NCBI GenBank assembly: GCA_033178465.1
Contig: GCA_033178465.1_4726.1
Strand: one strand, 5' to 3'
DNA from: a phage
DNA: 63,111 nt
The notes beneath the pieces are model-generated. The model was not told where the DNA came from. It made no database searches and saw only the letters and a program-made list of their open reading frames with translations. Made by a program: the position numbers and the translations under genes. This document shows, in pieces, positions 893 through 63,082 of this stretch (the stretch's first letter is position 1; each line of letters starts with the position of its first letter).

Positions 893-3800
893 ATGGCGAC
901 ATTCTTACCTGACGATAAGCAGGATCTGGTTGACCAACTCAATGTACTAAATAAAACAAATATCCCGGCTGATGGTATCGCAGTCACTGCTGTTGGCGAT
1001 AGTCAAAAACTTGACGGTGTTGGAAATTACACAGGGACGGTTACGGTTAATAAACCAAAACGGTCATTCGCGACACTGTTTCCGTTCGGTGCGATCATGA
1101 AAAAAGAAACCGGTAACGAGGATGTTACTGGCCGCGCTGCACTCGCGTTATTGAACGAGCAGTTCCATCTGACGATTGCAGAAAGTTATTTCACAGAAGA
1201 ATCTTTAAATGCAACATACCAGTTAGGGACATGGAACAGCATCTCCGCACAAATCGCTTTAGAACCAACCAAGGATAACCCTTACTGGAAAGATACGTTG
1301 TTCATCTCAATGTATCGGTCAACGCTAGGTGCTTTGGAGGCATCTGATGCAAGCGCATCATCGAGTATTTATGTTGATTTAGGATCGGCTAGAAAAGCGT
1401 TCAATCTGAATCGTACCGGCGTATACAAGTTACCTTTACCAACAACGTCCAGTAGTGTACCGGACCGTTATGAATGGTGTCAGTTATTAGAAATTACACC
1501 ATCGGTTGTTGGCGGGCAGATTGACTGGAGCAACTACTTAACGCTGGAGCCGTTAACGCCGACGTTCCCAGTGATGGAAATCGATACAACCTATTACTTC
1601 CTGCTTTGGACATTTAACCGTAAAGATTGGTACGTGAAACAAATCACCGCATCGGAGCGTTATAACGATGTTGCTCAACTTATTGGTAAATGGGTGCTTA
1701 CAGCGTCGCCGGTTAATTTCGTTGGTTATGGTCATGCAAGATTCTTAACCCGAAACACAGGAACGTTTACCGATCCAGAAACCGATCATTACGTGTTAAA
1801 TGAAAGCGGGGTAATGGTAAACAACCGTCATTTCATTGCAGCAACACGACAAGAAGCGCAACCGGATGGTGACGCAACAACAGAAGGACAGTCGTTGTTA
1901 ATTCTGGGTGCGGGTATATTCAGTCATACAACGGATGACACCAAGCTTAAAGCGCATTATCTCACATTAGCAGAGGCATCGTTCGATGCGTATATAAAAG
2001 CGTTCTACGCAGGCCTTGAACCACCGGATACACCGACACGCTGGATCGCTAACTGGATCGTTAATGGTAAGCAACCGGTGTTGGCTCATTATCCTCTTGC
2101 AAAAGACGATTACCCAACACACGGGGGTTTCCATGACACAGCGGTTACATTCACCAGCGGTATCGGGAAAATAACACACGGTGCACCCACGTTCGGGGAA
2201 TACATGGATCTTGTTGTTCAGGTCTATGAGGGTAAACTCGGCTGGCAGAATTTGAACGCCGATGTGTTCAAAACCAATGATGAGGGGACGATTGACTGGG
2301 ATACAAAGGGTACAGTGTTCCCTATCGAGAAAGTTGCGTTACGCACAAAACGATACGTAAGTGCGGACGGGGACGATCTTGAAGCGTGTACTGACGATGA
2401 GGTAGGTACCATCGTACTCAAAGATAAATCCGTCAGCGGTTCTTATTTGGTTGCGTGGGCACCCCGCGTTCCTGTTGAATATGGCGGATACCTCATCAAA
2501 ACGAACGAGTGTCAGCATAACCGACCGATCCAGGTGCCGGTCACCAGAGACTACATGGGAAACGCGTCAGACGCTGAACAGTGGTTTTGTGAAGCAGCCT
2601 ACACCTTATATCGTTTAACGCAGCAGGAGCGTTATCAGAAAGCGTACAAGGCATCTTTGTTTACGATTGAAGAATATACCCGTATTGACGCTAACGATAA
2701 GTTCTTCCGTCAAGTAAAAGGAACCGATCGTTACGACACCGACGGTATCGCTTACACGTATACCTATCCATCGAAAGCACCGTTCACAATCACACGCGAT
2801 ACTGATGGCTGGATCGTGATTCAAGCATCTTCAGCACAAATTTACCTTGAACAGCAGGCCATTCCGTTCCGCGTCAATCGTGATTCAATTCTTCGGGTAA
2901 CCTGCGGCGGTAAAGATACAGCAGGTGTTGCAATTCCGGTTGAGATCTCATTATCGCTTTCTTTGGACAAAACCGAAGCGAAAGCCAAAACGTACAAGCT
3001 GGTATTACCTTCCAGCGCTGAACCGAAAGGATGGGATTTCAAAATAGGCTCATTGATTCCTGCTGATGCGGTTGATGAAGCTTCAACGCCAACCGGTGAT
3101 GCTGTTACAGGTTCTGTGTTGATATCGGCTGATAAAGTCGGCTGGAAAGACGATGTCGCCATCACAACAGAATTCAGCGAAGCGGTGGAAGATTCCTGGG
3201 ATGGGTTGTTCTTAAAAGCGCAGCTTACTGCGGCAGGCGGGCAATTTGAATTCAACCCAACCGCAAAACAGATCGTAAGACAGGTCAGTTATTTCGCGTC
3301 GATTGACTACAACGTTCGTGTAGAAGATGCAAATGGTTGGCGATGGTGGTATATGCTACCGGCCACCACAGCAAGAAATACATTGACGCTTTCGGCGAAC
3401 GGATGGACGCTTTCAGGGTATCAACCGGGCCACGCTGATACTGACCCTAGACCTTCTGCACCTGTGTGGGGCGATGGCTCAACTGAAATTCTGTTCTTGC
3501 CTGACGACAGCGATATCGCTGAAGGGGTATTTAAGCTCTACGCCATCAACAATCCGCCGTCAACTTACACCACGGATGACGGATACACCATGTTGTTTAC
3601 GTTAAAAGCAATCTTTGAGGCAGAGGGCACATTGCGTGTTGGCGATTGCACGATTGTCAACCAACGTCTGGATCCATTGCCTTATACTCCGGGTATTATT
3701 CCGTTCTCTAACAACTATATCCCTAACGCACCGACGTTCGACAGCTGGCGTGGTCAGCCTTATCCCGGCTACCAACATCCATGGGTCTTCCTGGATATGG

Positions 3801-21553: not shown

Positions 21554-21594
21554 CTCCCTCTTCCCACCGTCCTCTTGAAGGATGGGGAGGAGGG
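21554..21594 (+). terminator. GC-rich imperfect hairpin followed by GGGTTCTATGCTG
   Basis: CCCTCTTCCCACCGTCC…GGATGGGGAGGAGGG after stop of 21147-21548. Confidence 0.5.
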
Positions 21595-21621: not shown

Positions 21622-21680
21622 CAGTTTATTTCATGGCTATATTACTAAGGTGATAAGAGCAAAGTATTTTATCAACTATT
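21622..21680 (+). promoter_or_regulatory. conserved promoter-like element (CAGTTTATTTC-N5-CTATATTAC-N-AGGTGATAA) with downstream inverted repeat
   Basis: 33/36 identical to element at 59784-59819; contains TATATTAC; ~60 nt upstream of gene start 21718. Confidence 0.45.
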
Positions 21681-22848: not shown

Positions 22849-22891
22849 TCGCCCTATCCCAACTAACATTTAGATTAAAAAAGAGGTGAAT

Positions 22892-23386
22892 ATGGATAAG
22901 AAAGTTGAAATGCATGGTATTTGCGGGCGTCCTGCGGAAACGTCTAAAATAAAGGATAGGGTATCAGCTCTTCTCAATTTAGTGCCCAATACCGTACTAG
23001 TTGCATGTTGGGATATTATCGACACAACGATGCTGCGATTCGAGGCGAATTTAAGGAACAACAGTTGCTGGAGTCCCGCTTTGTCGGTTGACGATAAAGT
23101 CTATCTCGTAAACGAGACAACCGATAAAGATAATAATCGTATCGATCGTTGGCGTTTTGCGTTGCACGACAACGTTGTTAGTATCGACGTTATACTGAGT
23201 ATAACAGGTGAATCGTGTATTGCTGTCAATGAAATAGCGGCATACGCCAAACTAAAATTAGCACAGTGTTTTCATTCGCGTGTCCGAGGATTCGATATGC
23301 CCGTTATACTAACAATCAACGGGCACGACGGTTCAGGGCTGTTCGAATTCCACTACGATCCCGACAATGAAAATACAGAAGAGTAA
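22892..23386 (+). CDS. small protein, member of tandem paralogue family (C-terminal …EYxPDNE motif)
   Basis: ATG at 22892 with AAGAGG RBS; C-terminus (…FDMPVILTINGHDGSGLFEFHYDPDNENTEE) paralogous to 23460-23921 and 23921-24385. Confidence 0.7.
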   Translation: MDKKVEMHGICGRPAETSKIKDRVSALLNLVPNTVLVACWDIIDTTMLRFEANLRNNSCWSPALSVDDKVYLVNETTDKDNNRIDRWRFALHDNVVSIDVILSITGESCIAVNEIAAYAKLKLAQCFHSRVRGFDMPVILTINGHDGSGLFEFHYDPDNENTEE

Positions 23387-23400
23387 TTAATCAACGATAT

Positions 23401-23425
23401 CGTGTCCCTTGTTAGGTGGGACACG
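23401..23425 (+). terminator. hairpin after 22892-23386
   Basis: CGTGTCCC-TTGTTAGGT-GGGACACG inverted repeat. Confidence 0.5.
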
Positions 23426-23459
23426 TATCGGTTAAAAGGTGTCGAAGGTGTTAAAAAAA

Positions 23460-23921
23460 ATGACGACATGGGATTCTTACGGTGAGCAGCTGGTAGAATC
23501 GATAATTAAAAGCTTTGAAATACTCGAAGTAAGATTGCAGGAGGACGGGTGCTGGGAATTATTTAACGAGCCCGATTCCGACTCCGAACCTTACTTCTAC
23601 AACCTATCCGTTCCAACAACACAACACGGCAATGCTACGATTGTAGATATCACCGACATCAGAGTTTACAATAATCGTATCGCTGCGACAGCACAATTAC
23701 CTTTCAGCGTAAACGGGCTTGCCGCAAAGCAACTTCTAATGTATACAGCCAACGAGACATTTGGTAAATGCATAAAGTCGCACGGTATCTCGTTCCCCCT
23801 AGCGATCGATTATGAATTATCGGATGGCTGCAATCTCGTTACATTGGAGTATGAACCAGATAATGGAACAGAGAGTGCTGTTATCTCTGTTCCGATGAAG
23901 ATGAAGAAAGAGGTAGAATAA
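23460..23921 (+). CDS. small protein, member of tandem paralogue family
   Basis: C-terminus QLPFSVNGLAAKQL…ISFPLAIDYELSDGCNLVTLEYEPDNGTE; start assigned to ATG at 23460 (alternative GTG 23439/23448 possible). Confidence 0.65.
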   Translation: MTTWDSYGEQLVESIIKSFEILEVRLQEDGCWELFNEPDSDSEPYFYNLSVPTTQHGNATIVDITDIRVYNNRIAATAQLPFSVNGLAAKQLLMYTANETFGKCIKSHGISFPLAIDYELSDGCNLVTLEYEPDNGTESAVISVPMKMKKEVE

Positions 23922-24385
23922 TGGCAACAACGTATTCATTCGAATCTAACGTCAACGAACTTTTCGACTCGCATAAAGACGCTTACGTCACGCCTGTTGC
24001 TGACACCGTCACTCGAAGTATCGAATCTCTCAAACAAAATCTACGCAAATCCGATATTTGGTCGGTGGGACATAGCGATAATGACGGGACGTATTTTACC
24101 ATCGTGGAACGCATCCCAACAATACCGTTCCATAGCGTTTATCTCGACAGTACCGTTGTTTTCTATGTTTACAAGCACCGTATCCTTATCAACATACAAC
24201 TACCATTCAGCGTCAGCGGGGTTGATGCTATACGTCGGTTGTCTGATGTTGCTAATAACGCATTTACGAAATCAGCTATGCCGTGCGATTTCCCTATTAC
24301 GGTAACACTCAAGTTTTCCGATGGTTATGAATTCTACACGATGGAGTACTCTCCAGATGAAGAAGGAACTAACACCAAAGAGTAA
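23921..24385 (+). CDS. small protein, member of tandem paralogue family
   Basis: C-terminus QLPFSVSGVDAIRRL…DFPITVTLKFSDGYEFYTMEYSPDEEGTN; TAATG overlap with previous gene. Confidence 0.7.
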   Translation: MATTYSFESNVNELFDSHKDAYVTPVADTVTRSIESLKQNLRKSDIWSVGHSDNDGTYFTIVERIPTIPFHSVYLDSTVVFYVYKHRILINIQLPFSVSGVDAIRRLSDVANNAFTKSAMPCDFPITVTLKFSDGYEFYTMEYSPDEEGTNTKE

Positions 24386-24399
24386 TTACACGTAAACAT

Positions 24400-24432
24400 G
24401 CCCTTCCCTAGCCGTCAAGGCCGGGGAAGGGC
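24400..24432 (+). terminator. GC-rich hairpin after 23921-24385
   Basis: GCCCTTCCC…TCAA…GGGAAGGGC followed by TGTATACC. Confidence 0.5.
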
Positions 24433-24461
24433 TGTATACCGACTACACAGGAAAAGAAACA

Positions 24462-24902
24462 ATGAACATGAAAACCGACAAATCGATGAAAAAGCGCTTA
24501 GATCGTCTATTCAATGGTCCCACGGTAGCCTCCGTCGTTGAGGATGTTATTACTCAAGCATTCGAATGCGTGGACAGAGGTCTTAATAGTATCCTTGGAT
24601 GGCATCAGAAAGAACGTGAAGGTAAGCTCGTCCAGTGTTACAATGAACGTCACTTTGATGATGGTGGTATCAGTGGCGATTACTTTATCTATTTATTTCC
24701 CGATAAAATCACGATCAACATCGAATTCGATAATGCGATGAACGATCAGGAAATAACATCGATGCGCCAAGCCGCAAAACAAGCCTTCGGACGTTGCGTG
24801 GAGCAATACGATCCTGATGTGTTTATCACGTGCCGCATTTTCATCGAACCGAGAAAATTAATTCAGCATATGTCCTACGGCACCACGGATGATGATATCT
24901 AA
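24462..24902 (+). CDS. small protein, probable divergent member of tandem paralogue family
   Basis: 146-aa ORF; C-terminus ITINIEFDN…VEQYDPDVFITCRIFIEP resembles family pattern. Confidence 0.6.
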   Translation: MNMKTDKSMKKRLDRLFNGPTVASVVEDVITQAFECVDRGLNSILGWHQKEREGKLVQCYNERHFDDGGISGDYFIYLFPDKITINIEFDNAMNDQEITSMRQAAKQAFGRCVEQYDPDVFITCRIFIEPRKLIQHMSYGTTDDDI

Positions 24903-37519: not shown

Positions 37520-37527
37520 CAGCATAT

Positions 37528-37560
37528 TCCCTCCTCCTTCCCTGACGGGTTGGAGGAGGG
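37528..37560. terminator. conserved palindromic hairpin element (family A, inverted orientation) between convergent genes; TATG on both flanks
   Basis: CCCTCCTCCTTCCCTGACGGGTTGGAGGAGGG; followed by TTATGC; complement of upstream flank reads AATATGC. Confidence 0.6.
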
Positions 37561-37581
37561 TTATGCTCATGCTATTTTGTT

Positions 37582-45781: not shown

Positions 45782-45803
45782 TCAGTTAATAAACTGACAT
45801 ATT

Positions 45804-45835
45804 CCCTCTCCCTTCCCTTACGGGTTGGGAGAGGG
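45804..45835 (+). terminator. conserved palindromic hairpin element (family A) followed by TTCTATGCC
   Basis: CCCTCTCCCTTCCCTTACGGGTTGGGAGAGGG immediately after stop of 44459-45781. Confidence 0.6.
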
Positions 45836-45883
45836 TTCTATGCCGCTCAGGTTTATCTTTTGAATCATTACTGGAGACAACAC

Positions 45884-59719: not shown

Positions 59720-59723
59720 TATT

Positions 59724-59756
59724 CCCTCTCCCTTCCCTTTACGGGTTGGGAGAGGG
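59724..59756 (+). terminator. conserved palindromic hairpin element (family A) followed by TTCTATGCTG
   Basis: CCCTCTCCCTTCCCTTTACGGGTTGGGAGAGGG after stop of 58352-59719. Confidence 0.6.
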
Positions 59757-59783
59757 TTCTATGCTGTCTTAAGCGCATCACTC

Positions 59784-59837
59784 CAGTTTATTTCGCGACT
59801 ATATTACCTAGGTGATAACAACGGTTACTGTTATCAC
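59784..59837 (+). promoter_or_regulatory. conserved promoter-like element with downstream perfect inverted repeat GTGATAACA-N8-TGTTATCAC
   Basis: Second copy of 36-bp element; ~50 nt upstream of gene start 59871. Confidence 0.45.
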
Positions 59838-59870
59838 TGTAAATTTCTCTTAATAACCGAGGATACAAAC

Positions 59871-60644
59871 ATGACAGATATTTACATCAAACTGGCTGAT
59901 GACGCTCTTGACACATTACTGGCTGACTACCAGGTCCCAGAACAGACGGATAGTTTCAACGAAATTGTTGGGGCGGACGAAGGACGACATTGGATATTTT
60001 CTCCTGTGGAAAATCAATCGCGCCTTGGTTATCGTACCGTAGAAACATTTAAGGTCGCTCGAATCTTTCGCGCTGCAAAAGACAACACGTATTTCGTTTA
60101 CATAACTCAGGATCATTCCGATGAACCGGGCTACCTAATAAAACTCGATGCGTACGAAGCTGAACGTAAGCTCGAATACGCTCTTAACGAGATTCGTCCG
60201 CGAATCACAAAGAAACGTCGTAGCACCGGTATTCTCCGCGATCTACCAACGATTTATCTTGAAGTCGTTGAACTCCTTAGTCGTCGAGACACTTCGGAAC
60301 TTGTTGAAACGAACAAGCCGATCTATATTCATCCTGAATGCCATACCACGTACGATCGTTACTTAACGATAACAGGTGGTGTAGCAGCGCCATCACCAGT
60401 CGATATTGGCGAGTGGAGAATGATTCGTGAGATCTATCCTGACGGCCGTATCGTGACGTTTTGCGGTCGTACCTGTCTACCTTGCGATGCGTTGAATGAA
60501 AAAGTCCTTTCCGCTTATTTCTCAACGCTAACAAATTCCCGACAGTTCTATGCACTCGTCGTCGATTCCCAGAAAGAATCCATAACCGGTAACGCGGGAT
60601 CGTACTCCGGCTACCCCCACCATTTCTACGCCGATCCTGAGTAA
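59871..60644 (+). CDS. hypothetical protein, paralogue of 60730-61632 (Cys-containing conserved C-terminal domain)
   Basis: ATG at 59871 with AGGATA RBS (track ORF extends upstream through terminator and promoter-like element); C-terminal PIYIHPECHTTYDRYLTITGG…GEWRMIREIYPDGRIVTF matches neighbour. Confidence 0.7.
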   Translation: MTDIYIKLADDALDTLLADYQVPEQTDSFNEIVGADEGRHWIFSPVENQSRLGYRTVETFKVARIFRAAKDNTYFVYITQDHSDEPGYLIKLDAYEAERKLEYALNEIRPRITKKRRSTGILRDLPTIYLEVVELLSRRDTSELVETNKPIYIHPECHTTYDRYLTITGGVAAPSPVDIGEWRMIREIYPDGRIVTFCGRTCLPCDALNEKVLSAYFSTLTNSRQFYALVVDSQKESITGNAGSYSGYPHHFYADPE

Positions 60645-60729
60645 CCCAATATTGGTAGGGCCCTAAACAAAGGAGCCCTACCAGCATCACAAAACCGCAA
60701 TCATCCTTATCGTAATCAAGGAGCTCAAC

Positions 60730-61632
60730 ATGACCATCATTTATCGTGAATTATCCGCTGAACAACAGGCACATTTCCTCGCAATGAAACAACGTTTGGT
60801 CGACAAAACAGAACTTTTAAACAAGACGACCGATGAGTGCATCTGGGTGTTATCTGACGACGCCAACGACAGCCTATGCTCCGTATATATCGAATCAATC
60901 GTTTTCTTCAATGCACCACACAACGACAATAACGCAATCTTCTTTCTCAAAGATCCCAGCGTTCCTGGGGGGATCTCTTATCTTACAAAACCTCGCGAAC
61001 AAGCGTGCGCGAGTATCTTTGGATTACTCGAAAACCTGAGAATCAGGTATAACGGAATGCTGACAACCGTTCCTGATCTTTACGTCAAAGCAATCAAGAA
61101 GTACTATACGAAAGAACCTGTAATCGACTTAAAGAAAGAATTTGACAATTTCAAAATCGACACATCATCGCTCTCAATAGAGAAATGCGATGATATCGAT
61201 AGAACGGAAATGACCGGACCTATCTATCGTCATCCTTGTTGTTCTGAAGGGTTCGATACTTACCTTACCGTTACAACCGGATACGGCAATACGCCACCCA
61301 AAGACGTTCTTATCGGAACATGGTGCGTCGTTCGTGAAGTTTACCCAGACGGTACAATTATTACCGCTGATGGTGATAGACTCGCTCCAGCGATAAGTAC
61401 CTACGCCGACACCTTCAAAAACGAAGGAACGTTCGACCGTCAAAATTTGGTTTACTACGTACTCGCGGTTAATTCAAATCGTCCTTCTCAACAAGGTTTC
61501 TCATCAACAAGGCAAAATGCGCCATACGGCTATCATCCACACAACAACATGTTCAACCAATCTAACCCGTACTACGATGCAATTCAACGAGTACAACAAC
61601 AGGTCAGTCCTTGTAACTCGAAGACTAAGTAA
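60730..61632 (+). CDS. hypothetical protein, paralogue of 59871-60644
   Basis: 300-aa ORF, AAGGAG RBS; PIYRHPCCSEGFDTYLTVTTG…GTWCVVREVYPDGTIITA. Confidence 0.7.
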   Translation: MTIIYRELSAEQQAHFLAMKQRLVDKTELLNKTTDECIWVLSDDANDSLCSVYIESIVFFNAPHNDNNAIFFLKDPSVPGGISYLTKPREQACASIFGLLENLRIRYNGMLTTVPDLYVKAIKKYYTKEPVIDLKKEFDNFKIDTSSLSIEKCDDIDRTEMTGPIYRHPCCSEGFDTYLTVTTGYGNTPPKDVLIGTWCVVREVYPDGTIITADGDRLAPAISTYADTFKNEGTFDRQNLVYYVLAVNSNRPSQQGFSSTRQNAPYGYHPHNNMFNQSNPYYDAIQRVQQQVSPCNSKTK

Positions 61633-61707
61633 ACCTTAACAAACTTAAATCAGTCTATGCATTGATTCTTCTATCCGCAACCCACCTAACATAGAAAGGT
61701 AAAAACG

Positions 61708-62277
61708 ATGTTCAATCCAGAAATCATGATTCTTGATCCTTGGTATCTCAACAAACTTCCAGGAATCAAAATGCCAGGCGATCCTCACGCGTTCGATTTG
61801 ATGGTTGTTGCCGAAGTTACCAGTAATACGGTTAACACCATCGACGATGATGAGGTTCCTGTTGAAGAGGTGTTCTCTGTTACCACGACGTTACTGGAAA
61901 GTCGAGAGCTGACCGAAAACGGCTGCGCCGACGAAATCATTCCTATCGATGGTGAGATGGAGATCATGTTAACACAGGTCGAGTTACAGCATCGCGTCGC
62001 ACCAACAAAAGACACGCCTTATGACAATGAACCTGCAGAACAACCCGATGAGAACGGTCGAGTAAAACTTGCCGACATCGACGACGATGCTCTCGAAGAG
62101 ATCGACGAAAACGAAGAAACGAACTTCTACCAAGCTGAAGCGAAAGAAGCGTTTGATAAAGCGGTTCAGCATGATCGACGTATCACCGAGAAGATGATCC
62201 AGCAACAACTTATCGGTAAACGTCTTAAGCTCGAATTCGCAAGCGGGGTGCTTACTACCTGGTCACTCATCGTCTAA
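61708..62277 (+). CDS. hypothetical acidic protein
   Basis: 189-aa ORF, AAAGGTAAA RBS. Confidence 0.65.
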   Translation: MFNPEIMILDPWYLNKLPGIKMPGDPHAFDLMVVAEVTSNTVNTIDDDEVPVEEVFSVTTTLLESRELTENGCADEIIPIDGEMEIMLTQVELQHRVAPTKDTPYDNEPAEQPDENGRVKLADIDDDALEEIDENEETNFYQAEAKEAFDKAVQHDRRITEKMIQQQLIGKRLKLEFASGVLTTWSLIV

Positions 62278-62347
62278 AACCGAAACAACGTTTTCATTTC
62301 CAAATCACATACCCAACAATCTAAATCCAATTAAGAGGACAACATTT

Positions 62348-62749
62348 ATGTTTAATATTCTTAGTGTACCGCGTTCCCCTGTGAGTTCTTACTTCGGTAT
62401 TATGACCAGTAAAGAACACAATGTGGAATATACTGTTATCGCTAAAGACCCATCACCGATCAACGTAACGTTTGCTGAAGGTACTACCGAACTCGTTCCG
62501 TTAAACGGTGAATTCAGTAAACCTGTTAACGGCGTCTATGAACTCATCACTCGCGATCCGAATAACAACGCGACCTACCGTGTGGTGTGTGCGTTCAACA
62601 ATAACAAACTGGTTATCGTTGCGGATAGCCGAGGATTATCGTGGATGGCTGATGAAGGCGCACATCGTTACTACGAAGAGTGCTTACGAACCGCAGGCAT
62701 CTACGATCTGGTAATGGACGCCCGTGCTAAAAACGACCGTATGTTTTAA
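62348..62749 (+). CDS. hypothetical protein
   Basis: 133-aa ORF, AAGAGGA RBS. Confidence 0.65.
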   Translation: MFNILSVPRSPVSSYFGIMTSKEHNVEYTVIAKDPSPINVTFAEGTTELVPLNGEFSKPVNGVYELITRDPNNNATYRVVCAFNNNKLVIVADSRGLSWMADEGAHRYYEECLRTAGIYDLVMDARAKNDRMF

Positions 62750-62755
62750 ATTATC

Positions 62756-63082
62756 ATGATTACTCGAGAAATCATTTACGACGCTATTATCGAATGCCGT
62801 CATCGCGTCATGCGTGGAACGGTATATAACTACCACTTAAATAACATTATCAGTGAATGTATGGCGGTGATGACTAGCGCGCTGGGTAAACCTAGCGCTA
62901 TCGCACTTTATCCAAACATCACTGAACAGGAGCAAATCAATATCGAAAACCAACGTCGAGTGAATCGCCAATACGATGTAACAGCCATGCACGCATGGCT
63001 TATCGTTGCAGCGAAACTCAACACGCTTCTCACTGAGAACGGCTGGAAATTTTCACCTAATGAATTCATGACAATAAGTTAA
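62756..63082 (+). CDS. hypothetical protein
   Basis: 108-aa ORF; followed at window edge by start of conserved hairpin (63098-63111). Confidence 0.6.
   Translation: MITREIIYDAIIECRHRVMRGTVYNYHLNNIISECMAVMTSALGKPSAIALYPNITEQEQINIENQRRVNRQYDVTAMHAWLIVAAKLNTLLTENGWKFSPNEFMTIS

Follow-up and report, generated by a model that had tools for sequence, protein, structure and literature searches.

Two adjacent genes on the plus strand of a 63,111-nt stretch of phage DNA (hereafter the window), the open reading frames ORF-A and ORF-B, raise the question of how they are related to each other and what they do for the phage that carries them. The window comes from a close relative of Escherichia phage vB_EcoM_Goslar (MK327938), with the flanks of the ORF pair about 96% identical in blastn comparisons; the phage is a Goslarvirus of the Chimalliviridae, a nucleus-forming jumbo phage. 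ORF-A (59871–60644; 257 amino acids (aa), class A paralogue) comprises an N-domain (aa 1–135, 59871–60275), a linker (60276–60317), a C-domain (aa 150–233, 60318–60569) and a disordered Tyr/His/Pro tail (60570–60641). ORF-B (60730–61632; 300 aa, class B paralogue) comprises an N-domain (aa 1–123, 60730–61098), a long linker (61099–61209), a C-domain (aa 161–250, 61210–61479) and a Gln/Asn/Tyr-rich tail (61480–61629). The initial annotation had taken the two for paralogues with divergent N-terminal halves and a conserved C-terminal domain whose Cys and His residues hinted at a metal site, and had read a promoter-like element ahead of the first copy as a sign of early expression.

In BLASTP with compositional matrix adjustment, residues 136–253 of ORF-A and 150–269 of ORF-B align over 127 columns (32% identity, E = 3e-17), so that the significance persists after correction for composition and the proposed paralogy stands. 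In profile-profile comparisons, the C-domains of the two orthologue groups matched at E = 5.6e-18. The C-terminal motifs quoted initially, PIYxHPxC, (Y/F)DxYLT and GxW..RE(I/V)YPDGxIxT, are present and conserved over the 28 full-length family members (20 of the ORF-A class and 8 in the other three classes), and Tyr152, His154, Pro155, Asp162, Tyr164, Leu165, Gly180, Trp182, Arg186, Glu187, Asp191, Gly192, Thr196, Gly199 and Pro204 are invariant in the family. The N-terminal halves are indeed divergent, but they are fast-evolving homologues rather than unrelated sequences, as shown by a full-length match between the N-domains of the two orthologue groups (E = 9.8e-9, probability 95.7%) and by a shared MTxIY start, a conserved Trp and an LPxIYL strand. 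In addition, the secondary-structure elements of the AlphaFold2 models follow the same predicted order in both halves of ORF-A and ORF-B, and every full-length member ends with a disordered tail in which Tyr, His, Pro and Asn abound. Because both halves are homologous, the whole gene was duplicated in tandem, with the N-half diverging much faster, as opposed to a common domain having been joined to unrelated N-termini.

The family is confined to Goslarvirus, the Goslar-like jumbo phages that form a nucleus and infect E. coli, Salmonella and Shigella. Word-indexed searches yielded 19 orthologue clusters for ORF-A (48–98% identity) and 5 for ORF-B (54–96%), and those on long contigs all lie on contigs of ~105–250 kb, mostly ~240 kb, from E. 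coli, Salmonella or Shigella assemblies or from metagenomes. An exhaustive search of 1.84 billion protein representatives with hidden Markov models (HMMs) returned four true clusters only, all Goslar-like. The remaining HMM hits proved spurious: P0027, a tandem-repeat ORF of 1,291 aa, matches the low-complexity tail only, and P0028 and P0029 match over 17 residues. No match was obtained by tblastn against 50,697 deposited phage genomes, and the HMMs of each domain found no additional family member in the window. This distribution agrees with a 2025 survey in which Goslarvirus grew from one genome to 237, all from bacterial assemblies (PMC12768965). For the 35 members used in the annotation searches, Pfam, PHROGs, NCBIfam, PADLOC and the PDB sequence profile gave nothing significant. 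Fold searches with the predicted models gave no match either, the N-domain alone being confidently modelled (predicted local distance difference test (pLDDT) 80–90, as compared with 55–67 for the C-domain).

A comparison with Goslar itself indicates how the locus varies. Window positions 59876–61648 (1,773 bp) are missing in Goslar, where 82 bp stand instead, and the sequence on either side, up to 59875 and again from 61649, is 96% identical (blastn against MK327938). Goslar retains the promoter region, the ribosome-binding site (RBS) and the ATGAC start, followed by a 25-codon ORF (MTLLIRDPSEYENTRYNHNQFGNNF) made up of the first 38 nt (95%) and the last ~33 nt (97% nucleotide identity) of a third paralogue (P0026 class) present in L003, a Salmonella Newport-associated relative. 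HMMs of both domains detected no copy of either in the Goslar genome. Because the remnant joins the two ends of the third paralogue, Goslar has lost the family genes by deletion, and this loss is also why the family has so far gone unexamined. Goslar gp47 (Goslar_00047/HOV27_gp047), annotated as a 62-aa hypothetical protein, shares the locus, promoter-like element, RBS and ATGAC start with the window but is what a deletion has left: it has 25 codons when read from the conserved start and contains neither domain. The start annotated for the 62-aa protein (L001 6060–6248) lies 5' of the RBS, inside the promoter/leader region.

In a survey of the window and ten other distinct genomes (Goslar counted once, L018 being its IMG/VR copy and the same as L001), the island ranged in length from 298 to 3,151 bp and occurred in eight configurations, with zero to three full copies plus N-domain-only, C-domain-only and frameshifted copies. 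Goslar has the remnant only, and L017 has no family member and an unrelated extra gene ahead of the terminator. The A+B pair of the window recurs in L002 and L007; in L005 and L006 it is preceded by the unrelated extra gene and a 134-aa N-domain-only gene. Class A is followed by D and E in L003 and by D and a C-domain-only copy of E in L009, the latter arrangement occurring behind the unrelated extra gene in L019. L011 has an N-domain-only gene, A, a frameshifted D and E, at which the contig ends. The locus is thus a hotspot of gain and loss, bounded by the spike-cap gene on one side and by three conserved early genes on the other. That both Goslar and L017 have deleted the family shows it to be dispensable. 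The paralogues are alike in their RBS and start regions, and such short homologies would be of the type used in unequal recombination and precise deletion.

Each domain may work, or at least persist, alone, because both exist as stand-alone ORFs in relatives: N-domain genes of 134 aa (seven clusters, P0032–P0039; for example L005 3569–3970 and L011 3552–3953) and C-domain-only ORFs of ~135–148 aa (L019 10003–10449 and L009 5878–6285). As a separate observation, the extra gene of ~210 aa, absent from the window, occupies the interval between the spike-cap gene and the terminator, within the late operon (L017 7386–8017, L005 ~2820–3448, L019 7286–8017). Its YRG...SFTDT...QRE spacing recalls R-S-E ADP-ribosyltransferases by eye, a resemblance that Pfam does not support (TusA only, E = 0.022).

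The ratios of nonsynonymous to synonymous substitution rates (dN/dS) differ between the two domains. In comparisons with relatives, the flanking genes showed dN/dS of 0.01–0.13 (mostly 0.01–0.07), with dS of ~0.2 for most relatives. For the ORF-A C-domain, dN/dS was 0.03–0.09 and dS reached 1.3–1.8 against four relatives (L003, L005, L009 and L011) whose flanks differ by dS of ~0.2; the alleles are therefore much older than the genome backbones carrying them. For the ORF-A N-domain, dN/dS was 0.15–0.59, and dN was 10–30 times that of the C-domain. For ORF-B, the N-domain (dN/dS ~0.6, up to 0.63) exceeded the C-domain (0.10–0.18) 3- to 6-fold in dN/dS. These values show strong purifying selection on the C-domains. 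In some ORF-A orthologues, the N-domain is merely 31–35% identical to that of ORF-A and the C-domain 96–98% identical, and three N-types and two C-types are found in each of the six possible pairings. At the nucleotide level, resemblance to such relatives ends at 59891, 20 nt into the gene, and returns at ~60314–60328, in the first C-domain codons. Because purifying selection on the C-domains is accompanied by this shuffling of N- and C-types, the genes are functional and modular, with a variable N-module that is swapped between alleles by recombination at the linker.

The promoter-like element ahead of ORF-A (gtttatttcgcgacTATATTACctaggtgata; 59786–59817, plus strand, core 59800–59807) scored 29.5 bits with a position weight matrix trained on eight Goslar sites. 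With this matrix, Goslar yielded 12 sites, every one on the coding strand, and the window two, at 29.5 and 26.8 bits; ten shuffled windows yielded no site, indicating that the element noted in the initial annotation is real. In intergenic regions of Goslar, the coding strand carries exact TATATTAC cores set in the same flanks (tttcAcGGcTATATTACyTAgGTGA), and the motif stands 80 nt upstream of the start codon of chmA, the early shell gene, so that the window carries at 59786–59817 the same motif as this Chimalliviridae early transcription unit. Directly after the motif, a stem-loop is predicted on the plus strand (59811–59838; GTGATAACA..TGTTATCAC; minimum free energy (MFE) −11.4 kcal/mol, z = −3.2). 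A stable hairpin (z of −2 or lower) begins 3–5 nt past the TATATTAC motif at 9 of 14 sites, including Goslar sites in L012–L016, which suggests a 5' stem-loop at the head of early transcripts in general, and the stem-loop at 59811–59838 is likely the 5' end of the early transcript. An AT-rich core motif of ~10 nt has been described at early promoters of every jumbo phage that encodes an RNA polymerase (review, PMC7598289).

The timing of the unit can be judged from published Goslar RNA-seq data (Supplementary Table 2 of the Goslar early-vesicle study), in which ChmA-knockdown cells, arrested at the vesicle stage, were compared with control cells; the locus tags of the table were verified. The genes gp044–047 showed log2 fold changes of +0.7 to +1.3 in the knockdown, that is, at or above control, whereas the flanking late genes dropped 6- to 45-fold (−2.5 to −3.8 for gp048–050 and −4 to −5.5 for gp041–043). 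All nine checked Goslar motif sites (before gene 187) precede genes with log2 fold changes near +1. Early expression of ORF-A and ORF-B is thus well supported by orthology with the Goslar gp44–47 unit, which belongs to the early, vesicle-transcribed class, and the link from the element to early expression drawn initially gains from the motif shared with chmA and from this orthologous unit.

Two further points on the motif were considered and set aside. Decay of the promoter motif in Goslar (TACATTAC) was dropped, as this variant is also found ahead of early genes at three further Goslar sites and gp044–047 are still transcribed. The published note on the chmA start site ("91 nt upstream") is not unambiguously reconcilable with the motif 80–73 nt upstream of the ATG, and therefore no transcription start is claimed. 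Separately, gtttatttcgcgacTATATTACctaggtga (core 59800–59807) has its sole other window copy at 21638, within the second motif match (21624–21655, core 21638–21645; 26.8 bits), which precedes a tandem array of four paralogues of 146–166 aa (22886–24902). The ORFs at 23439 and 23921 of this array match each other at E = 2e-17, and the Goslar counterparts, gp073–075, are also of the early class. The array is probably the pair that the initial annotation had counted as first.

Jumbo phages that form a nucleus protect their DNA against host nucleases, yet they are exposed in the first minutes of infection, and phage proteins that handle host factors at that time are little known. We tentatively favour, with a confidence just short of even, the reading that ORF-A and ORF-B are dispensable early host-interaction or counter-defence proteins in which a variable recognition domain is combined with a conserved core. 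They would be soluble, acidic, cytoplasmic accessory factors produced at the start of infection. The variable N-domain would recognise a partner that itself varies, most likely a host factor or an immune protein; a common activity or docking function would come from the conserved C-domain together with the aromatic tail, and a phage with several paralogues that differ in their N-domains would cover more partners. Because the family is missing from it, Goslar, the only laboratory model of the genus, is a natural null mutant for these proteins.

A more specific version of this reading is speculative and, in our estimate, rather unlikely: the family might be an early effector of a new kind for the vulnerable pre-nucleus window, whose interchangeable N-domains act as decoys or binders of different host immune sensors that detect vesicle-stage jumbo-phage proteins. 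The conserved C-domain, which Cys4 would stabilise in one class, and the aromatic tail would then neutralise or sequester these sensors. If so, which Enterobacteriaceae strains a Goslarvirus can infect would depend on how many paralogues it has and of which type.

Several observations weigh against the host-interaction or counter-defence reading. With a mean N-domain dN/dS below 1, relaxed constraint explains the data as well as an arms race does, and the N-domain type does not obviously track the host genus, the same type being found in E. coli, Salmonella and Shigella records. The early timing is taken from Goslar, a phage that lacks ORF-A and ORF-B, and one Goslar motif site (position 201944, L016; 36 bits) precedes late genes that fall at least 16-fold in the ChmA knockdown (the RefSeq gene numbers near this site may be off by one), indicating that the motif alone does not guarantee early expression. 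As a separate matter of annotation, among the PADLOC profiles of anti-phage defence, ORF-A, ORF-B, P0026 and P0032 had no hit and P0025 reached only 12.7 bits (E = 0.019). Homology to a characterised counter-defence inhibitor was found in none of PHROGs, Pfam, NCBIfam and the PDB sequence profile, which are general libraries, none of them dedicated to anti-defence.

The same early expression and dispensability would also fit proteins that act in phage–phage competition or persistence, through superinfection exclusion or modulation of a carrier state inside bacterial isolates, in place of defence evasion. The gene-carrying relatives come largely from bacterial isolate assemblies, the 237 Goslarvirus genomes were found in such assemblies at phage-to-host ratios that fit carrier states (PMC12768965), and Goslar, which was isolated as a plaque former, is without the family. 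However, the genes are also present in metagenome-derived contigs (L006, L007, L009, L011 and L019), and the proteins lack the membrane segment typical of exclusion proteins. We consider this explanation unlikely.

The metal site suggested in the initial annotation would, if common to the pair, make the shared C-terminal domain a Cys/His metal-binding (zinc) domain and the proteins metal-dependent enzymes or regulators. His154 is invariant in 28 of 28 full-length members, and the Cys of HPxC (Cys157) is present in 26 of 28, being replaced by Tyr in P0007 and by His in P0026 (19 of 20 within the ORF-A class). All four cysteines of ORF-A (Cys157, Cys198, Cys202 and Cys205) are located in its C-domain, in a region with pLDDT of 56–67, and the C-x3-C-x2-C cluster is strictly conserved in the ORF-A class (Cys198/202/205 in 20 of 20 proteins); the invariant Asp162, Glu187 and Asp191 could add ligands. 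Conversely, Cys198, Cys202 and Cys205 are replaced by Asp/Asn/Glu, Leu and Ala/Thr, respectively, in every one of the eight proteins that make up the other three classes, ORF-B among them, and no zinc-finger, HNH or metalloenzyme family was matched, the best hit being HNH_5 at E = 0.2 in 1 of 35 members. Because these cysteines are replaced outside the ORF-A class and only His154 is invariant, the feature conserved between ORF-A and ORF-B cannot be a Cys/His metal site, and a metal-dependent function of the shared domain is improbable. A Cys4 structural metal site private to the ORF-A class is plausible from the residue pattern.

It is more improbable still that the cassette is a selfish or neutral mobile insert, either a homing-type element or a drifting duplicate, that brings the phage no benefit. 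The presence/absence polymorphism, the frameshifted and truncated copies and the precise deletions via the repeated RBS/ATGAC starts would be expected of such an insert, but the C-domains have remained under strong purifying selection (dN/dS 0.03–0.18) over dS >1, and the locus, strand and promoter are constant in all carriers. In addition, neither a nuclease, integrase or transposase signature nor flanking repeats were found; among the homing endonuclease families HNH, GIY-YIG and LAGLIDADG, the HNH_5 hit given above stood alone and was not accompanied by a fold match. That the proteins are accessory components of the virion or baseplate, as their position directly downstream of a late structural operon (gp50 stopper, gp48 spike cap) might suggest, is very improbable, since a terminator hairpin and an early-type promoter motif stand between the pair and that operon, the orthologous Goslar unit is of the early class and gp048–050 of the late class, and complete Goslar virions form without the family.

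The surroundings of the pair are as follows. The upstream late structural operon encodes a head-tail joining (stopper) protein (gp50), a 201-aa protein and then the homologue of Goslar gp48, the baseplate spike cap (cryo-electron microscopy study, bioRxiv 10.64898/2026.04.21.720040). It ends in a terminator-like GC-rich hairpin on the plus strand (59724–59756), an inverted repeat with 14-nt arms that is conserved in Goslar. Near-identical copies (85–98%) of this hairpin (TATTCCCTCTCCCTTCCC..GGGTTGGGAGAGGGTTCTATGC) are present at operon ends at 59720–59764, 45800–45843 and 37525–37562, and the hairpin tail GGGTTCTATGCTG is found again at 21590 and 12507 in the window. Each start of the pair has a Shine-Dalgarno sequence 7–8 nt 5' of it, GAGGA at 59859–63 for ORF-A and AAGGAG at 60718–23 for ORF-B. 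In the gap between the two genes, a hairpin without a T tract is predicted on the plus strand (60652–60684; MFE −24.6 kcal/mol, z = −4.3, with 0 of 200 shuffles folding equally well); it could serve in RNA stability or processing, or as a pause site or terminator for the phage polymerase.

Downstream of the pair lie three conserved plus-strand genes, the homologues of Goslar gp46, gp45 and gp44 (61708–63082), which are syntenic in all relatives. ORF-A, ORF-B and these three genes apparently form one early transcription unit, headed by the pair, because they share the strand, are separated by short gaps and have no terminator-like site ahead of the three. The gp46 homologue (61708–62277), the first conserved gene past the island, is very acidic (isoelectric point 4.15) with long Asp/Glu runs, evolves under strong purifying selection (dN/dS of 0.01–0.03) and is without a family match. 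Scans of the region for sigma-70 promoters and intrinsic terminators gave nothing beyond chance, and on either strand of the ORF-A/ORF-B locus no tRNA, Rfam family or flanking repeat was detected.

Beyond the pair itself, the analysis yields a working early-promoter motif for Goslarviruses and the recognition of Goslar gp47 as a deletion scar. The promoter-like element has its closest counterpart in the early units of phiKZ-like jumbo phages, which are transcribed by the virion RNA polymerase and likewise have a conserved AT-rich core 5' of their early operons, here the TATATTAC core with its flanks. A difference from these units is that one Goslar motif site precedes late genes, as described above. 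For the proteins, the nearest comparison that can be named is with small beta-barrel (OB-like) and PH/PTB-like folds, although the fold searches themselves gave no match.

Variable early accessory regions with tandem paralogues are familiar in large lytic phages, and the early tandem paralogues ModA and ModB of T4 are an example of such a hyperplastic region; what is new here is a protein family without a detectable sequence or fold relative. Unlike ModA and ModB, the ORF-A/ORF-B family has no detected ADP-ribosyltransferase domain, neither as a profile nor as a fold of the T4 Alt/ModA/ModB kind, nor any other known domain, and it matches no described phage accessory protein in sequence or fold. 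In its arrangement, the locus resembles the T4 ModA/ModB region: in both, early paralogues stand in tandem within a variable, non-essential stretch flanked by conserved genes, and close relatives differ in copy number and in presence or absence.

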